From positions 3,299 to 67,298 of the forward strand of contig JAFRKC010000003.1 in NCBI GenBank assembly GCA_017431955.1: a DNA stretch of 64,000 nucleotides. Direction: 5' to 3'. The translations under genes and the position numbers were made by a program. Positions 31,499 through 39,333 of this stretch are shown in pieces. The notes under the pieces are model-generated. The model saw only the letters and a program-made list of their open reading frames with translations. It was not told the origin of the DNA and made no database searches. The stretch's first letter is position 1. Every line of letters starts with the position of its first letter. This stretch comes from Candidatus Saccharimonadota bacterium. Its GTDB lineage: Bacteria; Patescibacteriota; Saccharimonadia; Saccharimonadales; Saccharimonadaceae.

Positions 31499-31644
31499 AG
31501 AACATATTATAGCATTTTTATGCTAAAAAATAAAACTTTAGAGTTTTGGGGTTGATTTTTGAAGGAATATTCCTTATAATTGTTACACTCTCTTCGCGCT
31601 GAGCGGAGTTGAGGAGTACATTTATAAGGAGAGTGGATAATTCC

Positions 31645-31860
31645 ATGGACAAAAGTTCAAAAGAAATTTACAGAGAGGGGTGCTGGAGCGTGGAGCTAAG
31701 AGAGCGCAACAACCACCTCGGCAAAAAACCTTGGATATTGTTCCAAGGTAACGAAATGTTCAGCTGGAATGGAGAAAAATTAAGGCAACGTGGTTGCCTA
31801 AGTGAGCTAATGATACCACCGAATGTTTTAAAAGCGGCTAAGAATGCTCTCTCGGTTTGA
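31645..31860 (+). CDS. Small hypothetical protein (~71 aa, MDKSSKEIY...)
   Basis: AAGGAG upstream, TATAAT promoter at ~31575, strong terminator 31893-31920. Confidence 0.55.
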   Translation: MDKSSKEIYREGCWSVELRERNNHLGKKPWILFQGNEMFSWNGEKLRQRGCLSELMIPPNVLKAAKNALSV

Positions 31861-31892
31861 CCGAGTTTCTTCATTATATTTTCACTTTTCGC

Positions 31893-31920
31893 ACCCCACA
31901 GCTTTGGCTGTGGGGTTTTT
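31893..31920 (+). terminator. Intrinsic terminator
   Basis: ACCCCACAGC-tttg-GCTGTGGGGT-TTTT. Confidence 0.75.
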
Positions 31921-31941
31921 AATTTGTGCTATGATATTTAT

Positions 31942-32577
31942 ATGAATATAGAAGAAAAAATTGAAGCTATTAAATATTGGCTAAGGACTGGTTCGATTAA
32001 TATTTTTGGTTTGCCGATGAGCGGCAAAGATACGGTGGGCGTGAGGCTCGCCGAGGTTTTGGGCGGCAAATTTTTGTCATCAGGGATGATTATCCGCGCA
32101 ATGGAAAAAGAAACTAACCAGAAATTAACCGACGAAGGCAAGTTGATTGAAACGAACGTGTTTTATGATTGGGTTTTGCCATATTTTGAAAGGCAAGATT
32201 TGGCAGATTTTCCGCTAGTTTTGTCGTCGGTAGGGCGCTGGAGCGGCGAAGAAAATCAGGTGCTAAGTGTAGCAGAATCGGCCGGGCATCCAATCAAGGC
32301 TGTGATACTATTAAATATTTCTGAAGGCGACGTAATGTCGCGTTGGGAAGCGGCGCAAATTTTGAATGATCGTGGAGAACGCGCTGACGATAAAGAATTA
32401 GCGGTTTTTAAAACCAGAATTAATGAGTTCGTAGAAAAAACTATCCCGGTGCTTAAACATTACAGGGAGATGGGTTTACTCGTAGAGGTGAAGGCTGACA
32501 TGGATAGAGAGTCAGTGTTTAATGAAGCAATTGAACAGTTGTATCGGTTTGCCGAAAATTCCCGCGTGGTAGTTTAG
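31942..32577 (+). CDS. adk: Adenylate/nucleoside monophosphate kinase
   Basis: P-loop GLPMSGKDT, SSGMIIR, GERADD...RINEFVEKTIPV; start MNIEEK after TGcTATGAT-N6. Confidence 0.85.
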   Translation: MNIEEKIEAIKYWLRTGSINIFGLPMSGKDTVGVRLAEVLGGKFLSSGMIIRAMEKETNQKLTDEGKLIETNVFYDWVLPYFERQDLADFPLVLSSVGRWSGEENQVLSVAESAGHPIKAVILLNISEGDVMSRWEAAQILNDRGERADDKELAVFKTRINEFVEKTIPVLKHYREMGLLVEVKADMDRESVFNEAIEQLYRFAENSRVVV

Positions 32578-33797
32578 TCGCGTTTGAGCATCACGGTAAA
32601 GGCATCAGACGGGATGTCGATTTTGCCGAAGCGTTTCATGCGGGCTTTGCCACGCTTTTGTTTTTCGAGAAGTTTGGCTTTGCGGTCGCGATCGCCGGTG
32701 TGAATTTTGACGGTAACATCTTTACGGTAGGCGCCGATGGTCTCGCGGGCGATAATGCGAGCGCCGATAGCAGCCTGCAGAGCAACTTCAAAGTTTTGGC
32801 GCGGAATGATTTCTTTAAGTTTTTTGGTGATTTCTCGGCCAATACGATCGGCTTCGCTGCGGTGGCACATCACGGAAAGTGCATCGTTTTTGTTGCCGGC
32901 GATAAGAAAATCGACGCGCACCAAATCTTCGACACGATAGTCGGCGAGTTCGTAGTTAAACGAGGCATAGCCAGAAGTGAGAGATTTGAGTTGGTCGTAA
33001 AAATCGGTAAGTAGATTGGCCATTGGGGCTTCAAAATCGATGATGGCGCGATCTTCTAAGTAGCTGAGATTCTTTTGAATTCCGCGCTTTTCGACAATCA
33101 GATTTAAGACGTTGCCGATCATGGATTTTGGTAGGATGATTTCACCTTTTACCCATGGTTCGCGAATTTCTTTTACTTCGCTAGGATCAGGAAGATCAGA
33201 AGCGGATTTGATTTCGATTTCTTCGCCGGAGTTTAATACCACTTCGTAGTTGGTGGAAGGGTTGGTGACCACAAGATCAAGATTAAACTCGCGCTCTAAA
33301 CGCTCGCGAATGATGTCCATGTGAAGAAGTCCTAAGAAACCAATGCGCAGGCCAAAGCCGAGAATCGGAGAATTTTCGGGCTCAAATTTGAGCGCAGAGT
33401 CGGAAAGCGAAAGTTTTTCGACGGCTTCTTTTAAGGTTTTGTAATCTTCGTTTGACACTGGGAAAAAGCCAGCATAGACAAACGGCAAGACATTTTTGTA
33501 ACCCGGGAGTGGTTTGGCGGCAGGATTTTTAGCTAAAGTGACAGTATCGCCAACTTTGGCATCGCTGGTGGTTTTGAGGTTGGTAACAATGTAGCCAATT
33601 TCGCCTTCGGTGAGTTCTGGCTTTGGCGACATGTTGGGATTAAGAATACCGACTTCTAGAGCGAGGCCGGTTTTCTCAGCAGCCATCATTTTGATTTCGG
33701 AGTTCTTTGGCAGACTACCTTCGAAAATCCGGACGTAGAGGATAACTCCGCGGTAGTCATCAAAGTAGGAATCGAAAATTAGGGCTTTTAAATGCAT
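32574..33797 (-). CDS. lepA: Elongation factor 4 (LepA), domains II-III-V-CTD, as a separate gene
   Basis: LKALIFDSYFDDYRGV, VKVGDT-like AKVGDTVT, GLRIGFLGLLHMDIIRERLEREF, GYASFNY, IPRQNFEVALQA, LLEKQKRGKARMK; own TGtTATAAT-N7-ATG. Confidence 0.95.
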   Translation of the reverse strand: MHLKALIFDSYFDDYRGVILYVRIFEGSLPKNSEIKMMAAEKTGLALEVGILNPNMSPKPELTEGEIGYIVTNLKTTSDAKVGDTVTLAKNPAAKPLPGYKNVLPFVYAGFFPVSNEDYKTLKEAVEKLSLSDSALKFEPENSPILGFGLRIGFLGLLHMDIIRERLEREFNLDLVVTNPSTNYEVVLNSGEEIEIKSASDLPDPSEVKEIREPWVKGEIILPKSMIGNVLNLIVEKRGIQKNLSYLEDRAIIDFEAPMANLLTDFYDQLKSLTSGYASFNYELADYRVEDLVRVDFLIAGNKNDALSVMCHRSEADRIGREITKKLKEIIPRQNFEVALQAAIGARIIARETIGAYRKDVTVKIHTGDRDRKAKLLEKQKRGKARMKRFGKIDIPSDAFTVMLKRD

Positions 33798-33834
33798 TAA
33801 TATTATTATAACATTTTTTCTGAAAAATGGAATG

Positions 33835-36408
33835 TTAGAACTTCATGATTCTGCGGCGCCTGTAGAAGCGATAGGCGGCGGCTGCAGAAGCGGTGGTGAA
33901 GATGCCAGCGATAGCGATGATGATGGTGGTATTATTGCCGTTTGCACCACCAAGGGTTTCGCCAAGACCAGTGTTTGGCACATCTTCTACACATTCTTTG
34001 GTGTAGGTGGCTTTGTATGTGGCCGGGCCGGTAACAACGGCGAATTCTGGAGTCCATTTGCTGAAGGTATAGGCGCAGTTGTCGACTTTTTTATCTGGTG
34101 CCTTGTCGTGGCTTGGAGTCTGGCCATATTCTACTTCTGCTTCGTCAATCGGCGTGCCGTCATCGTCAACAAAAGAGATTTTGTATTTCCTGATTACTGG
34201 GGTGAATACAGCATAGTAGTTGTAGTCACTGGTAACGGCGGTGGTGCCGACAACTAATTCTGGTGTATTGGCATCCATCGGTAGATAGTCGCTGAGGACG
34301 TATTCGTATTGCTCTGTAGAAGCCTTAGTTGCTGTTGGAACGGAAGTGATTTTGTTATTATACTCATAAGTTTTTGTTTCCACGAGAGTGGTTTTGTCTT
34401 CGTTGTAGAATTTGACAACGTAGTCAATACCTTCTCTCTTATATTGAGCAGTATAGACAGCATTACCAGTTACGGTCGTGACTGCTGGATCCCAGCCAAT
34501 AAATTCGTAGGTATAAGTGCCGTCTGATGGCTTGGTTGGAGTTGCACCGTTGTACTGAGGGACAGAGCCGTAAGCTACATTAGTATCGGTTTCTAGAGTA
34601 GTGCCATCATCGTTTTTCCAGGTGATGGTGTAACTTCTAGTTGTCTGAGTATATGTGGCTGTGTAGGTTTTATCGCCGGTAACAGTTGAAATTGTTGGAG
34701 TCCAACCTGCGAAGGTGTAGTTGTATTGTGCGGTTGAAGCTTTGGTTGGGGTGGTACCGTTGTACTGAGGGACAGAGCCGTAAGCTACATTAGTATCGGT
34801 TTCTAGAGTAGTGCCATCATCGTTTTTCCAAGTGATGGTATAGTCGCTTCTGGTGACAAGGTGAGCGGTGAAGGTGTAGTCGTCGGTAATCCCGACCCCG
34901 GTGTCTCCGCTATCAACAATACCTGCCATAAGGCCTGGAGGAATAATTGTTTGAGTGGTGATGTTAGTACCATCTATATCTTTATCTACGGTCCAATGGG
35001 CGATAGTGTATTTCGCCGAAGGATTTTCGTCGGTTGACTCAGGGTCTTCGTTAGTGTAAAGATATGGGAGGTTTTCGATGCCGATTGTTTCTCCTTCATA
35101 AATGCTGTCTGTAGCGGATTCGTTAATTCTTGTGCCGTTACGACCTAGCACATTAGCGATACTAACGCCGTTGTTGCTATCATCGACGGCATTCCAGGTG
35201 ATATTGTAGGCTTCGGTGAGAAATTCCCAACGAGAAAGTGCAGTGCTCCTAAAACCATAGGTAACTTCTACGTCTTTATTAGATATTGAACCTAATTCAC
35301 CTTCATCTATTTCGTCGCTAAATTTAATGTAAATATTGGCCTTATCTGGATTAGCAAAAACTTCTTTTTGGCTCTCTGCTGTGCCCTCTTTGTAAGAAGA
35401 GAAGACCGAAACATTATCGTTATCGTAATATATATAATTTTGCTGATCATTAGCATTAGTATTAGTGGAAAATTGAGCAGCATCAGCAGGGTTAACGTAA
35501 ATATTGCATGAACCACCAGCGTGATTAACGATTGGAATGCTATTATCACAAACATTACTGTTTGGAAAACGATAGGATTGAGCGGCGTCGATATCGTCTA
35601 TTTTGAGATAGAATGTGTCTGGTGCGTGAGTGATGGTATATTTTAATTTAATAAAAATAGCTGCCTGATTCCCATAACTATCCGTGGAATATTTTTGATA
35701 ATAACCAGCTGGCATGTCGGCTGATAGTTGATTTATGTTGGTAATAACCCATTCAGTGTCACATTTTATATCGGTGTTCGTATTACTGTCGTGATAATAA
35801 GCTCCGTCAGATTTCCATATAGTACATGAATCAGCATAAACGTTTTGAGCCGAAAAATAATTGTGCGTTTCGCCGATAAGGAATGGCTCGTAGTGGCTAC
35901 TCGCGCTATAGGTCTCTAGAACTGTAGCCTTGATTTCGTAATCACCTGAAGTTACAGTCCACGACACCTCTCCGTTTGTTGTCCAATCGTGTGAACCGCT
36001 TGGGACTTCGAGATATTTAACTGGTCGCATGATTTGAGGACCCTCGCCTGCTTCATAGCCAGACGTTGTTGGACCTCTTAATCTACCCTCTTTCCATATG
36101 CCACCAGTGAAATTCTTGATGCTGGAATTTTCTGTCGTCCTGGTATCATTGACATTGGACCAGGATTTTAACCGAGTAAAAAGATCGTCTTCTGGAACGC
36201 TAAGGATAGTATTGAGGTTGTCTTCTGGATTTCCCAAAGCTTTTACTCCTCCATCCGTAGTATCGTAGCTGATTTCTATGCTAGTGCTATCAGCGTTGGT
36301 TTCGTTATCGTTGATAAAGAATTGGTTGGAGAAAAATCCTACGGCACCAAGAACCGCTACTATAAAAGTAGAGATCAGGATTTTCTTTCTGGTTCGTTTT
36401 AGTTTCAT
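33835..36408 (-). CDS. Surface protein with Listeria-Bacteroides (InlB B/Flg_new-like) repeats and VPNTG-TM-basic tail
   Basis: YTITWKNDDGTTLET...YTFAGW...TYTATY repeats; VPNTGLG, TM, RRRR; own TTGACA promoter at ~36495. Confidence 0.85.
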   Translation of the reverse strand: MKLKRTRKKILISTFIVAVLGAVGFFSNQFFINDNETNADSTSIEISYDTTDGGVKALGNPEDNLNTILSVPEDDLFTRLKSWSNVNDTRTTENSSIKNFTGGIWKEGRLRGPTTSGYEAGEGPQIMRPVKYLEVPSGSHDWTTNGEVSWTVTSGDYEIKATVLETYSASSHYEPFLIGETHNYFSAQNVYADSCTIWKSDGAYYHDSNTNTDIKCDTEWVITNINQLSADMPAGYYQKYSTDSYGNQAAIFIKLKYTITHAPDTFYLKIDDIDAAQSYRFPNSNVCDNSIPIVNHAGGSCNIYVNPADAAQFSTNTNANDQQNYIYYDNDNVSVFSSYKEGTAESQKEVFANPDKANIYIKFSDEIDEGELGSISNKDVEVTYGFRSTALSRWEFLTEAYNITWNAVDDSNNGVSIANVLGRNGTRINESATDSIYEGETIGIENLPYLYTNEDPESTDENPSAKYTIAHWTVDKDIDGTNITTQTIIPPGLMAGIVDSGDTGVGITDDYTFTAHLVTRSDYTITWKNDDGTTLETDTNVAYGSVPQYNGTTPTKASTAQYNYTFAGWTPTISTVTGDKTYTATYTQTTRSYTITWKNDDGTTLETDTNVAYGSVPQYNGATPTKPSDGTYTYEFIGWDPAVTTVTGNAVYTAQYKREGIDYVVKFYNEDKTTLVETKTYEYNNKITSVPTATKASTEQYEYVLSDYLPMDANTPELVVGTTAVTSDYNYYAVFTPVIRKYKISFVDDDGTPIDEAEVEYGQTPSHDKAPDKKVDNCAYTFSKWTPEFAVVTGPATYKATYTKECVEDVPNTGLGETLGGANGNNTTIIIAIAGIFTTASAAAAYRFYRRRRIMKF
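34546..34830. repeat. 75-bp identical intragenic direct repeat, 210-bp period
   Basis: ACCGTTGTACTGAGGGACAGAGCC...TCGTTTTTCCA at 34546-34620 and 34756-34830. Confidence 0.85.
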
Positions 36409-36519
36409 GTGACCTACTTTTTTTGTTTTTATTTTCGTGCCTAAACCTAGGCATAATGACCTTTATGTCCTTATAATAGCTAGTGTTTACAATTTGTCAA
36501 GAAGATTTTTGAACTTTTT

Positions 36520-37071
36520 TTAGATTTTTCGTGGAGCAGGGGCGGTTTCGATAATAGCATCTAGAACTTGTTCGACGTTTTTGCCGGTTTTGGCGGAAAC
36601 ACCGATGATTTCACTTTCTTTGCAGCCCAGAAGATTAACGATTTCTTTTTTAACCTTTTCCACATCCGCAGCCGGGAGATCAATTTTGTTGATAACTGGG
36701 ATAATATATAGATCCTGCTCTAGGGCCAAATAGACATTGGCGAGAGTTTGGGCCTGAATGCCCTGAGTGGCGTCAACAACCAACACGGCAGTTTCGACAG
36801 CCTGAAGCGAACGGCTAACTTCGTAAGAAAAATCCACGTGGCCGGGAGTATCAATAAGATTGAGTTCAAAGCCTTTATAGTGCATCTGAACAGGGGTGAG
36901 TTTAATGGTAATGCCCTTTTCACGCTCGAGTTCCATAGAGTCCAAAAGCTGAGCTTTCATCTCGCGCTTTTCGACGGTGCCGGTGATTTCCATCATGCGA
37001 TCGGCAAGAGTGGATTTACCGTGATCGATATGGGCAATAATACAGAAATTGCGGATTTTATCGGTGTTCAT
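36520..37071 (-). CDS. lepA: Elongation factor 4 (LepA), GTPase domain only, as a separate gene
   Basis: [63 protein letters not shown]; stops after APAPRKI. Confidence 0.95.
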
Positions 37072-37090
37072 TGTGATATAATTATATAAT

Positions 37091-37945
37091 ATGAAGCGAG
37101 TTTTGGCAATTTCTGGCGGGGTGGACTCCATGGCTTTGCTTGATTTTTGTGTGAAAAAATATCCCTTAGATTCACTCTTAGTAGCGCATTTTGACCACGG
37201 TACCAGGCCGTCGGCAAAAGATGATTATTTGTTTGTAGAAAAAAAATGCCAGGAACTTGGCGTAGAGTTTTGTGGATTTCACGCTAAACTTGGGGCGGGT
37301 GTATCGGAAGAGCGCGCAAGAAATGCGCGGTACGAGTTTTTTTATAGCCTGCTTTCTGATGATGATAAGCTGGTGGTGGCGCATCATTTGGATGATTTGG
37401 TGGAATCAGTGGTGATTAATTTTTTGCGCGGAACAGGATGGCGTGGGCTCGCGGTGATGAATGCCGAAAAAATCGAGCGTCCATTTTTAGATTGGACTAA
37501 AAAAGATATTTTAAAATACGCGCGTGATAATAACGTGGTTTTTCGCGAAGATCCTACTAATTCGTCTGATGAATATCTAAGGAACCGCGTGCGCTTTAAA
37601 GTGCGGGGGCTGGCGCGAGAAAAGAAACTTGAAATTTTGAAATTGAGAAATCGCCAAATCGAGATTGGTGCAGAAATTGAAAAAGTTGTAGCGGAAATTA
37701 TTGATAAAAATAAGATCAAAGTGAGTGAGGGTAAATTTATTTTTCCGCGCGCAATGTTTGACGACATGGACGAGGACGTGGCGGTGGAAATTCTGAAGAA
37801 AATTTTGAGCGCAGAAAATATTGCCTGCACTAGGCCGCAACTTTTAAATTTTTATCAAGCAATTTTAAAATATCAGCCGGGGAAATTTTTCAATTTACCA
37901 GGCGACAAGCTGGCCAGAATTGATAAAAAAACTTTTATGATATAA
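37091..37945 (+). CDS. tilS: tRNA(Ile)-lysidine synthetase (short form)
   Basis: [47 protein letters not shown]...YLRNRVR. Confidence 0.95.
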
Positions 37946-38564: not shown

Positions 38565-39333
38565 GTTTATCATCATCATATCTAGCACGTTTTTTGGCGA
38601 TGATTTTTTGGATTTCTTCTTCGTCATTTCTGGCGGTGGATTCTAGTGTATCGTCGATGATGGATTTATCTACGCCTTTCTTGATAAGCTCCATTCTTAG
38701 CCTCTTTTGGCTGATTCCCTTTTTGACGAAGCGGTTTTCGACATAATATTCTGCGAATTTTTGATCGTCTAAGTAGCCCTTTTCCACTAGGCGCGAAATA
38801 ACTTCTTGAATAATATCCTCGCCAAAACTAGAAGATTCTTTCTCGGACACGCTCAAGGGCGCTCGTCCGGGCTTATGGTCCGAGAAAGAACTTCTTGTTT
38901 TGGTCCGATCATCATCGGCCAAGCTTATGGTCCTCAAAGAAGCTTGTGATTTCGGATTTTGCCCAGGCTTATGGTCCGAGGAGGAACTTATAGCCCTTTT
39001 TACAGACTTCCTATATAAGTAGTCCTTGGTTTCGCGGACTGAGTGGGGGCGGGTAAGGACCCACTCGAGGGTTCTTTGATAGAGCTTGCCAAATTCGGAA
39101 GCTTTTTTATATTCGGCGAGTTTCTCGGGTGTAAGGGTTTGGCCTTTTTTCAGACCAAAATCTACCACCTGTGCAATGTCTAAAGAAAAGCTATATTTGC
39201 CGTCGACAAAAACATTCACCCGGTTTGGATTTTTAACGGCTTGTTTAATGTCTGAAACTAAGAAAGAATTGGCTGCGCTACCAGCACTTGTGGTTATATT
39301 ATCACACTTATGCTTATTTGTCAAGATTTCCAT
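38485..39333 (-). CDS. recX: Regulatory protein RecX (with repeat-derived insertion)
   Basis: VSDIKQAVKNPNRVNVFVDGKYSFSL, RPHSVRET, LVEKGYLDDQKFA, LRMELIKKGV, LIQYLVRQGF; downstream of recA. Confidence 0.9.
   Translation of the reverse strand: MEILTNKHKCDNITTSAGSAANSFLVSDIKQAVKNPNRVNVFVDGKYSFSLDIAQVVDFGLKKGQTLTPEKLAEYKKASEFGKLYQRTLEWVLTRPHSVRETKDYLYRKSVKRAISSSSDHKPGQNPKSQASLRTISLADDDRTKTRSSFSDHKPGRAPLSVSEKESSSFGEDIIQEVISRLVEKGYLDDQKFAEYYVENRFVKKGISQKRLRMELIKKGVDKSIIDDTLESTARNDEEEIQKIIAKKRARYDDDKLIQYLVRQGFDYALSKKLVLETDSQN
38830..38987 (+). repeat. One full plus two half copies of the palindromic repeat, in frame within recX
   Basis: Core 38844-38882 with arms AGAAGATTCTTTCT/AGAAAGAACTTCT; half copies 38915-38933 and 38961-38980. 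Confidence 0.85.

Follow-up and report, generated by a model that had tools for sequence, protein, structure and literature searches.

Elongation factor 4 (EF4, the product of lepA), a ribosomal GTPase found almost universally, is encoded in this Saccharibacteria genome from the gut by two separate genes instead of one. Fission of lepA has probably produced a functional two-chain EF4, the halves of which would most likely reassemble non-covalently. Such two-chain working seems the likeliest reading because the locus consists of two distinct genes, both strongly conserved, and the cut lies between domains; we infer that the halves associate physically and that together they have ribosome-dependent GTPase activity. 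The window, that is, the whole stretch of 64,000 nucleotides that was analysed, contains the following features around lepA.

37072..37109, (-) strand: putative N-half promoter, a consensus match only, with TTGCCA at 37109-37104, a 17-nt spacer, TATAAT at 37086-37081 and 9 nt to the ATG
36520..37071, (-) strand: lepA N-half (EF4 G domain, 183 aa), from ORF reading, Pfam and TIGR01393
36409..36519, (-) strand: spacer 3' of the N-half stop, containing the cargo-gene promoter together with a weak AGG ribosome-binding site
36500-36495 and 36478-36473, (-) strand: surface-protein promoter, TTGACA, N16/17 and TATTAT, from sequence reading
33835..36408, (-) strand: cargo gene for an 857-aa sortase-type surface protein, from ORF reading
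33798..33813, (-) strand: element with the C-half extended -10 promoter TGTTATAAT at 33813-33805, then 7 nt to the ATG (33797)
32574..33797, (-) strand: lepA C-half (EF4 domains II, III and V and the LepA-specific C-terminal domain, 407 aa), from ORF reading and Pfam
31924..32577, (+) strand: adenylate-kinase-like gene, a conserved convergent downstream neighbour of lepA in the genus; context, not EF4

The N-half (MNTDKIRNF...APAPRKI*) ends at a TAA stop within the linker that joins the G domain to domain II. It matches Pfam GTP_EFTU at 5e-59, and the GTPase motifs G1 to G5 are all intact, including G3 (DTPGH), G4 (NKID) and G5 (SAK). The C-half starts with MHLKALIFDSYF (MHLKALIFDSY...), matches GTP_EFTU_D2, EFG_C and LepA_C (1e-41), and aligns with residues 191-592 of 3CB4; its stop and the adenylate-kinase-like gene overlap by 4 nt. 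In the TIGR01393 profile the halves match positions 2-183 (300.7 bits) and 189-594 (540.1 bits). The sum, about 841 bits, is the score of a fused ortholog, and the C-half alone already exceeds the equivalog cut-off of 533.9 bits. The cut falls at E. coli LepA residues 184-190, in the G/II linker. EF4 is not encoded as one polypeptide, since a stop codon and 2.7 kb with a further gene lie between its two ORFs. Domains, GTPase motifs and near-full profile coverage are shared with canonical EF4 (E. coli; PDB 3CB4, 3DEG, 3JCD; TIGR01393), but the latter is a single chain, whereas here there are two genes with separate promoters and unrelated genes between. An earlier, sequence-only reading had described an intact 183-aa G-domain gene ending in APAPRKI* at the G/II boundary, an intact 407-aa gene for domain II to the C-terminal domain beginning MHLKALIFDSY, and an intact 857-aa surface-protein gene between them. 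All three are borne out, the first by the ORF and the E. coli alignment, the second by the ORF and Pfam, and the third by the ORF 36408..33835.

The surface protein has a membrane or signal segment at its N-terminus, 70-aa repeats, and a C-terminal sorting signal made up of VPNTG, a hydrophobic stretch and RRRR. It has no family match in Pfam or NCBIfam, and shares only 33% identity with its ortholog in G172; its gene contains a 210-nt internal repeat. A foreign composition of the cargo was rejected, as its GC content (0.36-0.47) does not differ distinctively from that of the halves (0.40-0.51). A transposon-like insertion was likewise discarded: neither terminal inverted repeats, direct repeats or a target-site duplication nor mobility genes (transposase, integrase) were found flanking or within the 2.7-kb insert.

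From TGTTATAAT and the 7 nt before the C-half ATG, a leaderless mRNA is predicted. A TGnTATAAT-N6-8-ATG leaderless promoter stands immediately 5' of the C-half in 27 of the 28 split loci examined. Of the TGnTATAAT-N5-8-ATG sites in the genome (n=110), 86% begin an ORF of 100 aa or longer, versus 17% for all ATGs. The leader of the N-half mRNA is predicted to be very short or absent. The locus did not occur in any of the RNA runs searched. The separate promoters that had been proposed for the C-half (33813-33805) and for the surface-protein gene (TTGACA-N16/17-TATTAT, 36500-36473) are thus both present, the former in a layout kept across the split loci.

As the genome is a metagenome assembly, it could be imagined that the split is an assembly artefact or stems from a chimeric bin. 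The chance of this is practically negligible. Four metagenome runs yield Logan contigs that match 32400-34575 and 34801-37300 with 0 differences and span both junctions, the sole break in coverage being the 210-nt repeat within the surface-protein gene; furthermore, the sister species G172 has the same architecture, as have another 28 species. No second lepA, full-length or otherwise, was found in the 98.4%-complete genome (7 contigs). Misassembly and a full-length copy elsewhere had been named at the outset as dangers to the two-gene interpretation; the four run assemblies and the 29 other split species speak against the one, and the search of the genome against the other.

A survey of lepA in Saccharibacteria confirmed the split, but also showed that it is not unique to the window genome. 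Of 201 species genomes in the genus (Ca. Nanosyncoccus-like), 30 have a split lepA, 55 an in-frame insert and 103 a plain gene, while four are without lepA and nine are ambiguous. The frames in this census were re-read from DNA; G190, G137 and G117 are counted as split, and G046 is unclassified owing to masked N runs. The split N-halves are all 179-185 aa long and end in ..(G/A)PxP(R/K)x0-5*; the C-halves are all 406-429 aa and start with M-x0-4-(R/K)ALIFDSYF. Both halves are present in 30/30 split genomes. Open frames and start codons were seen at all 29 split loci of which the ORFs were read, the thirtieth (G111) being spread over two contigs. The census contains no clear case of a genome keeping just one half: in each of the three single-half genomes (G174, G181, G201), the break lies at a contig end. 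lepA is apparently absent from G080, a 92%-complete genus member, and the halves are frameshifted in the low-quality genome G082. In a second Saccharibacteria lineage, lepA is split at the II/III linker, and a TGTTATAAT-N7-ATG start is seen there again.

The adhesin gene noted between the halves is indeed there in the window, but it is one cargo among many across the split species, and the linker of relatives often carries in-frame palindromic inserts. Depending on the species, the cargo is His_Phos_1, MIP, a Y-family polymerase (IMS), HD, TsaE, ORF6N, DUF3137 or ADK. Cargo surface proteins range from 845 to 2795 aa across split species, and cargo-free loci have inter-half gaps of 55 and 78 nt. 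In three species (G009, G048, G079) the halves are convergent on opposite strands, with the kinase gene between them because the segment made up of C-half and kinase is inverted; in other split species the gene order around the halves has changed. The two halves have in this way moved apart, each as a gene in its own right.

One might suppose that, after transcription or translation, a single chain is restored, whether through a split intein, through trans-splicing introns or through bypass by the ribosome. There is no positive sign of this, and it was considered since split inteins occur in the "fractured genes" already described (Dassa et al. 2009, PMC2677866). In these, too, an inserted ORF parts the two halves of a conserved gene, but the split ends of lepA have neither intein fragments nor an endonuclease gene. 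The halves total 590 aa against 592-593 aa in plain orthologs, so that there is no room for intein pieces. Moreover, a conserved ATG and a conserved promoter belong to the C-half itself, the opposite-strand arrangement exists in three species, and the gap (2.7 kb in the window, up to 8.6 kb in relatives) contains expressed-looking genes. A Hint/intein domain was not found at the split locus with Pfam, an Rfam E-value search of 31500-37600 for introns and ribozymes returned only three sub-threshold sRNA-like chance matches, and no homing endonuclease gene occurs between the halves in the window or in the relatives' cargoes examined. Restoration of one chain is therefore extremely improbable, and the initial impression that intein and intron signatures are lacking is upheld.

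Selection bears on whether lepA is in decay, an insertion having killed the gene while the pieces are not yet eroded. In favour of decay, model bacteria do not depend on lepA for survival, a member of the genus is apparently without it, and G082 has its frameshifted halves. However, the median dN/dS for split-split pairs is 0.058 (N) and 0.039 (C), compared with 0.071 and 0.066 for fused-fused pairs, and between the window and its nearest split relative, G172, omega is 0.023 on both halves with dS about 1.25; these omega values are approximate, because dS is near saturation. The split predates divergences between species for which synonymous sites are saturated (dS above 1), yet amino-acid identity is still 80-97%. 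Purifying selection on both halves is as strong as in single-chain orthologs, and the relaxed selection that had been envisaged as a counter-argument is contradicted (omega 0.02-0.06 on both halves). Together with the 29/29 open frames and start codons and the promoters in 27/28 loci, this makes decay very unlikely. The split is neither accident nor decay.

A different possibility is that both halves are functional but uncoupled, for example one as a GTPase consisting of a free G domain, and the other as a ribosome-binding protein that lacks the GTPase and comprises domain II to the C-terminal domain. Separate promoters, and halves on opposite strands or kilobases apart in several species, would suit this. 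On the other hand, 30 of 30 split genomes have both halves, and the single-half cases all end at a contig edge. Omega is as low as in fused orthologs, without a burst of change signalling a new function, and the G1-G5 motifs and the LepA C-terminal domain are unchanged. Uncoupled halves are consequently an unlikely, though not a far-fetched, alternative.

For the preferred reading, a two-chain EF4, the following course can be proposed. The cut in lepA would have fallen in the flexible G/II linker; the C-half would be expressed as a leaderless mRNA from the TGnTATAAT box 6-8 nt 5' of its ATG, and the N-half from a separate promoter of its own. The two would then reassemble through the native domain I/II interface and joint ribosome binding into an active factor. 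The halves have no added dimerisation segment, so that nothing but the ribosome and the native surface between the domains would serve to join them. The linker seems to tolerate long disordered additions, as the 24-66 aa inserts in 55 species suggest, and in a genus with leaderless translation one short motif may suffice to create a new gene start. If so, the cut costs little and may have arisen, or been undone, on several occasions. E. coli can dispense with lepA (PMC4245954), which together with the apparent absence of the gene from G080 indicates that the need for EF4 in the genus is not absolute.

Genes divided with both pieces retained are found in phages. The nrdA gene of Aeromonas phage Aeh1 is reportedly split by the homing-endonuclease gene mobE ("genes in pieces"), and T4 topoisomerase gp39/gp60 is another such case. 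As in lepA, an inserted gene cuts a conserved enzyme gene, both pieces are kept, and non-covalent reassembly is expected without splicing. The split lepA differs in residing in a cellular host, in having no homing endonuclease or mobility gene between its halves, and in being old and present in many species with changing cargo. Nanoarchaeum equitans, with its reduced genome, is said to have split genes as well (reverse gyrase, AlaRS and others). These resemble lepA in the domain-boundary fission of essential or conserved genes and the dispersal of the pieces in the ultra-small genome of an episymbiont, but concern different proteins and are fixed in a phylum, while lepA fission is recurrent and polymorphic in one genus. 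A literature search found no report of a split lepA/EF4 or of a split translational GTPase, in agreement with the earlier reading, which had seen no two-chain translational GTPase described.

The 55 species with an insert have a single lepA ORF in which a GC-rich palindromic element is translated in frame at the G/II linker. The inserts comprise 24-66 aa, are palindromic with 60-68% GC, and were checked as open ORFs in 55/55 cases. Copies of the element occur at at least nine other sites in G000, mostly within ORFs of 294-1054 aa; at the ten G000 sites examined the folding energy is -24 to -77 kcal/mol, and the core motif has 15 occurrences versus 0.9 in shuffles. Rickettsia palindromic elements, reportedly described in 2000, are dispersed palindromic repeats of about 100-200 nt that sit in frame within protein genes, where their translation yields a surface loop or a linker. 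The elements in the lepA linkers of the 55 relatives, and those in other genes of the window genome, are alike in this respect, but differ in phylum and sequence family, and the window's own lepA is without one: at its split no element was found, the spacers 36409-36519 and 33798-33834 being AT-rich promoter sequence. Rickettsia palindromic elements are mentioned in PMC1458961 and PMC10969869. In the literature search, nothing relevant was found on in-frame palindromic elements in Saccharibacteria.

The link between element and fission is circumstantial, consisting of the same site and an interleaved distribution on the tree. A single origin of the split was rejected, an AU test excluding one split clade (delta lnL 236, p 8e-16). 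On a tree of 95 rows, 10 changes of state (split or one-chain) are required, at least five of them forced by well-supported branches; the trees are quick and FastTree trees. It was also considered that the split state had spread horizontally, the lepA halves serving as homology arms. This is not supported in the window, where sliding-window nucleotide identity revealed no junction-proximal similarity to the large split clade, but only some mosaicism in domain II relative to G008. As a bolder and rather doubtful extension, EF4 may be an obligate non-covalent heterodimer, with the G/II linker (II/III in another lineage) as a landing pad where palindromic elements, promoters and whole genes come and go, and the gene flipping repeatedly among one-chain, long-linker and two-chain forms. 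The separate promoters would then let the supply of one half set EF4 activity.

In translational GTPases, the GTP-dependent movements of the G domain are commonly assumed to reach the remaining domains through a single continuous chain. If selection maintains a natural two-chain EF4, this would show that the G domain and domain II can do without a covalent link. Such a factor would furthermore offer a ready-made split site for engineering EF-G-family factors, and a handle on the disputed function of EF4, since either half could be expressed, depleted or tagged by itself. The case is also a record of how easily genes undergo fission in a minimal genome that is leaderless-translating and rich in palindromic elements. 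For annotation, stubs of about 183 aa labelled "GTP-binding protein" in Saccharibacteria are half of lepA, and public databases contain many N-halves of 179-186 aa, on contigs of up to 250 kb.

The sequence-only reading described a lepA gene, encoding elongation factor 4 (EF4), as two open reading frames (ORFs) around a surface-protein gene, and this observation is confirmed. Three complete ORFs lie on the minus strand, with domains assigned by Pfam and by TIGR01393, the NCBIfam lepA equivalog profile:

37071..36520, minus strand: lepA N-half (G domain), 183 aa, complete; Pfam GTP_EFTU 5e-59
36408..33835, minus strand: middle surface-protein ORF, 857 aa, complete; no Pfam match
33797..32574, minus strand: lepA C-half (domains II to CTD), 407 aa, complete; Pfam GTP_EFTU_D2, EFG_C and LepA_C (1e-41)

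The N-half covers TIGR01393 positions 2-183 (300.7 bits) and the C-half 189-594 (540.1 bits); all GTPase motifs are intact, and together the halves amount to 590 aa versus 592-593 aa in plain orthologs. In a comparison with solved structures, they can be aligned to E. coli LepA 3-183 and to residues 191-592 of the E. coli LepA structure 3CB4, respectively. The cut therefore costs only a few residues of the I/II linker. Both junctions read as first described. The N-half, with its own promoter (TTGCCA-N17-TATAAT, 9 nt before the ATG), ends in APAPRKI-TAA, and 3' of this end lies the promoter of the middle gene, TTGACA-N16/17-TATTAT. The middle gene stops at TAA; 21 nt further begins TGTTATAAT, followed by 7 nt and the ATG of the C-half, so that the extended -10 leaderless promoter claimed for this gene is indeed present. 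The middle product is a surface protein, with a membrane segment at its N terminus, repeats of 70 aa and a sorting signal of the type VPNTG-hydrophobic-RRRR. At its other end, the C-half shares 4 nt at the stop codons (32574-32577) with a convergent adenylate-kinase-like gene, which leaves no space for terminators between both.

Misassembly is excluded. The stretch is present in four gut-metagenome runs, all of one study, and contigs assembled independently from these runs match 32400-34575 and 34801-37300 without a difference, thereby spanning both lepA/cargo junctions ("cargo" being whatever sits between the halves); the sole break falls in a 210-nt internal repeat of the surface-protein gene. 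The assembly, 713 kb in 7 contigs and 98.4% complete, contains no second lepA; its remaining TIGR01393 matches are TypA, EF-G, EF-Tu and IF2-type genes. As had been read from the sequence, there is no sign of an intein domain in the halves (Pfam) or of an intron or ribozyme across 31500-37600 (Rfam). Ribosomal bypassing is ruled out, since in some species the halves are up to 8.6 kb apart or on opposite strands. A search of RNA runs found the locus in none of them.

The proposed survey of this junction shows that relatives carry the split as well. These are named Candidatus Nanosyncoccus or Candidatus Saccharibacteria and come mostly from the guts of goat, sheep, buffalo and other animals. A total of 201 species genomes of the genus were searched with TIGR01393, and 88 lepA loci of relatives were retrieved and their frames re-read from the DNA.

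State of lepA in the 201 genomes
Plain, about 590-605 aa: 103 genomes
One ORF, lengthened in frame by 24-66 aa precisely at the G/II linker: 55 genomes, all 55 verified open
Split at the G/II linker into two ORFs: 30 genomes
No lepA: 4 genomes, including one that is 92% complete
Not assignable to a state, owing to contig ends, masked bases or, in one case, a frameshifted bin of low quality: 9 genomes

Split N-halves are all 179-185 aa long and end in ..(G/A)PxP(R/K) plus 0-5 residues; the C-halves (all 406-429 aa) start with M, 0-4 residues and (R/K)ALIFDSYF. N-halves of 179-186 aa are numerous in public protein collections, on contigs up to 250 kb, labelled only 'GTP-binding protein' or 'LepA'. 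In genome G087, a fused lepA with an insert coexists with an additional C-half that stands alone on another contig (L065, G087:C4:2432-3697; L066, G087:C2), which may reflect a strain mixture or a duplicate. In G080 (92% complete; G052 is listed alongside), lepA is apparently missing, the best TIGR01393 match being TypA, and EF4 would therefore not be indispensable in this genus.

Long after the split, strong purifying selection has clearly continued to act on both halves, which excludes decay of lepA; the relaxed selection envisaged as a refutation is not seen. Median dN/dS (Nei-Gojobori, codon alignments) is 0.058 for the N-half and 0.039 for the C-half in split-split pairs, against 0.071 and 0.066 for the corresponding parts in pairs of single-chain species. 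The window and its sister species G172 have the split and an orthologous surface-protein cargo in common, with dS about 1.25, dN 0.03 and omega 0.023 for each half, values that are approximate because synonymous sites are near saturation. A functional two-chain EF4, with predicted association and activity, is the most likely explanation and a probable one, and the first reading is thus supported; its main rival is that the halves have separate functions. The two-chain EF4 could be held together by the domain interface and the ribosome, in keeping with the tolerated linker inserts.

The remark that such an arrangement had not been seen described agrees with full-text literature searches, which found neither a split lepA/EF4 nor any translational GTPase encoded by two genes. 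The closest analogues comprise the 'genes in pieces' of phages (Aeh1 nrdA with mobE), whose defining endonuclease gene is absent from the lepA cargo, the split-intein 'fractured genes' (PMC2677866), whose defining intein fragments are absent from the lepA halves, and split genes in Nanoarchaeum.

Each half behaves as a gene of its own, and the cargo changes with the species: histidine phosphatase (12 loci), aquaporin, Y-family polymerase, HD protein, TsaE, an ORF6N phage-type protein with phosphatase, membrane proteins, or surface proteins of 845, 857, 898, 1353 and 2795 aa. It is lacking in G114 (55-nt gap) and G178 (78-nt gap). No homing endonuclease, integrase or transposase occurs among the cargo genes, and no repeats flank the 2.7-kb insert of the window. 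In G009, G048 and G079, the C-half lies convergently on the opposite strand and the adenylate-kinase-like gene, a conserved convergent downstream neighbour of lepA in the genus, is placed between the halves, an arrangement expected from an inversion of C-half plus kinase that had one of its breakpoints in the linker. Elsewhere, the N-half has changed places with the phosphatase or with tsaE. The cargo proteins of the window (33835-36408) and G172 (L054:2288-4984) are 33% identical, versus 97% for the flanking lepA halves; their N-terminal signal and C-terminal sorting tail are conserved, pointing to a hypervariable exposed middle part.

A TATAAT-like box, mostly TGnTATAAT and often directly past the terminator of the cargo gene, precedes the C-half start (ATG; GTG in G090) at 6-8 nt in 27 of 28 split loci; G146 alone differs, with an AGGAG ribosome-binding site located behind tsaE. 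Such a box close upstream of the ATG is a general gene-start design of this genome: 86% of its 110 TGnTATAAT-N5-8-ATG sites open an ORF of at least 100 aa, against 17% for any ATG and 28% for TATAAT-N12-15-ATG. Thus, one short motif gives both transcription and translation starts, and a new internal gene start might be mutationally cheap.

The three forms (split, insert-bearing and plain) are intermingled on a LepA tree of 95 rows, built after the linker columns had been taken out. This tree requires 10 changes of the split state, and branches with an SH-aLRT of at least 95 force five or more of these; a 51-row tree already required seven. A single split clade is rejected (AU test, p 8e-16). 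The window groups with G172 with good support, and the relatives nearest to this pair have one-chain forms: G008 is plain, and G019 and G066 carry inserts. This mosaic may reflect repeated fission, re-fusion or recombination; a sliding-window comparison gave no sign that the junction region of the window was imported from the large split clade.

Tolerance of a long linker in 55 species shows that there is little constraint on the covalent link between the G domain and domain II. The inserts of these species are richer in GC (60-68%) than the genome (roughly 45%) and form extended, imperfect palindromes around cores such as CCCGT-GACG-ACGGG, which occur in both orientations and in more than one reading frame. 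The family to which they belong is dispersed: copies stand at nine or more further sites of the window's own genome, mostly within ORFs of 294-1054 aa, and are translated in frame (peptides such as EPRNDG.E and SPVTTGA). Sites are C4:23752-23820; C1:55372, 69043, 72335 and 76520; C6:77327 and 92872; C2:73651; and, in the window, 18290-18390 and 38820-38990 (-53.6 and -68 kcal/mol). Folding energies at ten sites examined range from -24 to -77 kcal/mol, and the genome has 15 occurrences of the core motif, versus 0.9 in shuffled sequence. As GC-rich dispersed palindromes in frame in ORFs, the copies are similar to the palindromic elements of Rickettsia. Since the split site in the window lacks the element, the link between element and fission is circumstantial. 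The sister species G113 (L074) and G044 (L075) share an 82-nt element at an identical position in lepA; the two copies are 97.6% identical and oppositely oriented, which points to in-place inversion or independent palindrome insertion. A 259-aa NCBI/ENA protein, P0084, joins a lepA G domain and an element peptide to a tail with a tRNA_Me_trans_C (MnmA C-terminal) Pfam match, and may be a chimeric ORF arisen at the same linker.

A second split point exists at the II/III linker. About 20 database clusters of 276-284-aa proteins comprise the G domain and domain II, all ending in ...VGDTVTL(R/A)KYF. On a 160-kb ENA contig of another Saccharibacteria lineage (L077:5001-9627), three unrelated genes separate a 277-aa G+II protein, ending in ..VGDTVSLKKYFD*, from a downstream 320-aa ORF that encodes domains III to CTD and whose start reads TGTTATAAT-N7-ATG. 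Within Saccharibacteria, lepA is thus split at one or the other of two linkers between domains. In a single-chain lepA (L164, G047:C29:18144-19985; TIGR01393 positions 2-287 and 282-594), about 20 aa are inserted in frame at the II/III linker, where lepA is split in that other lineage.
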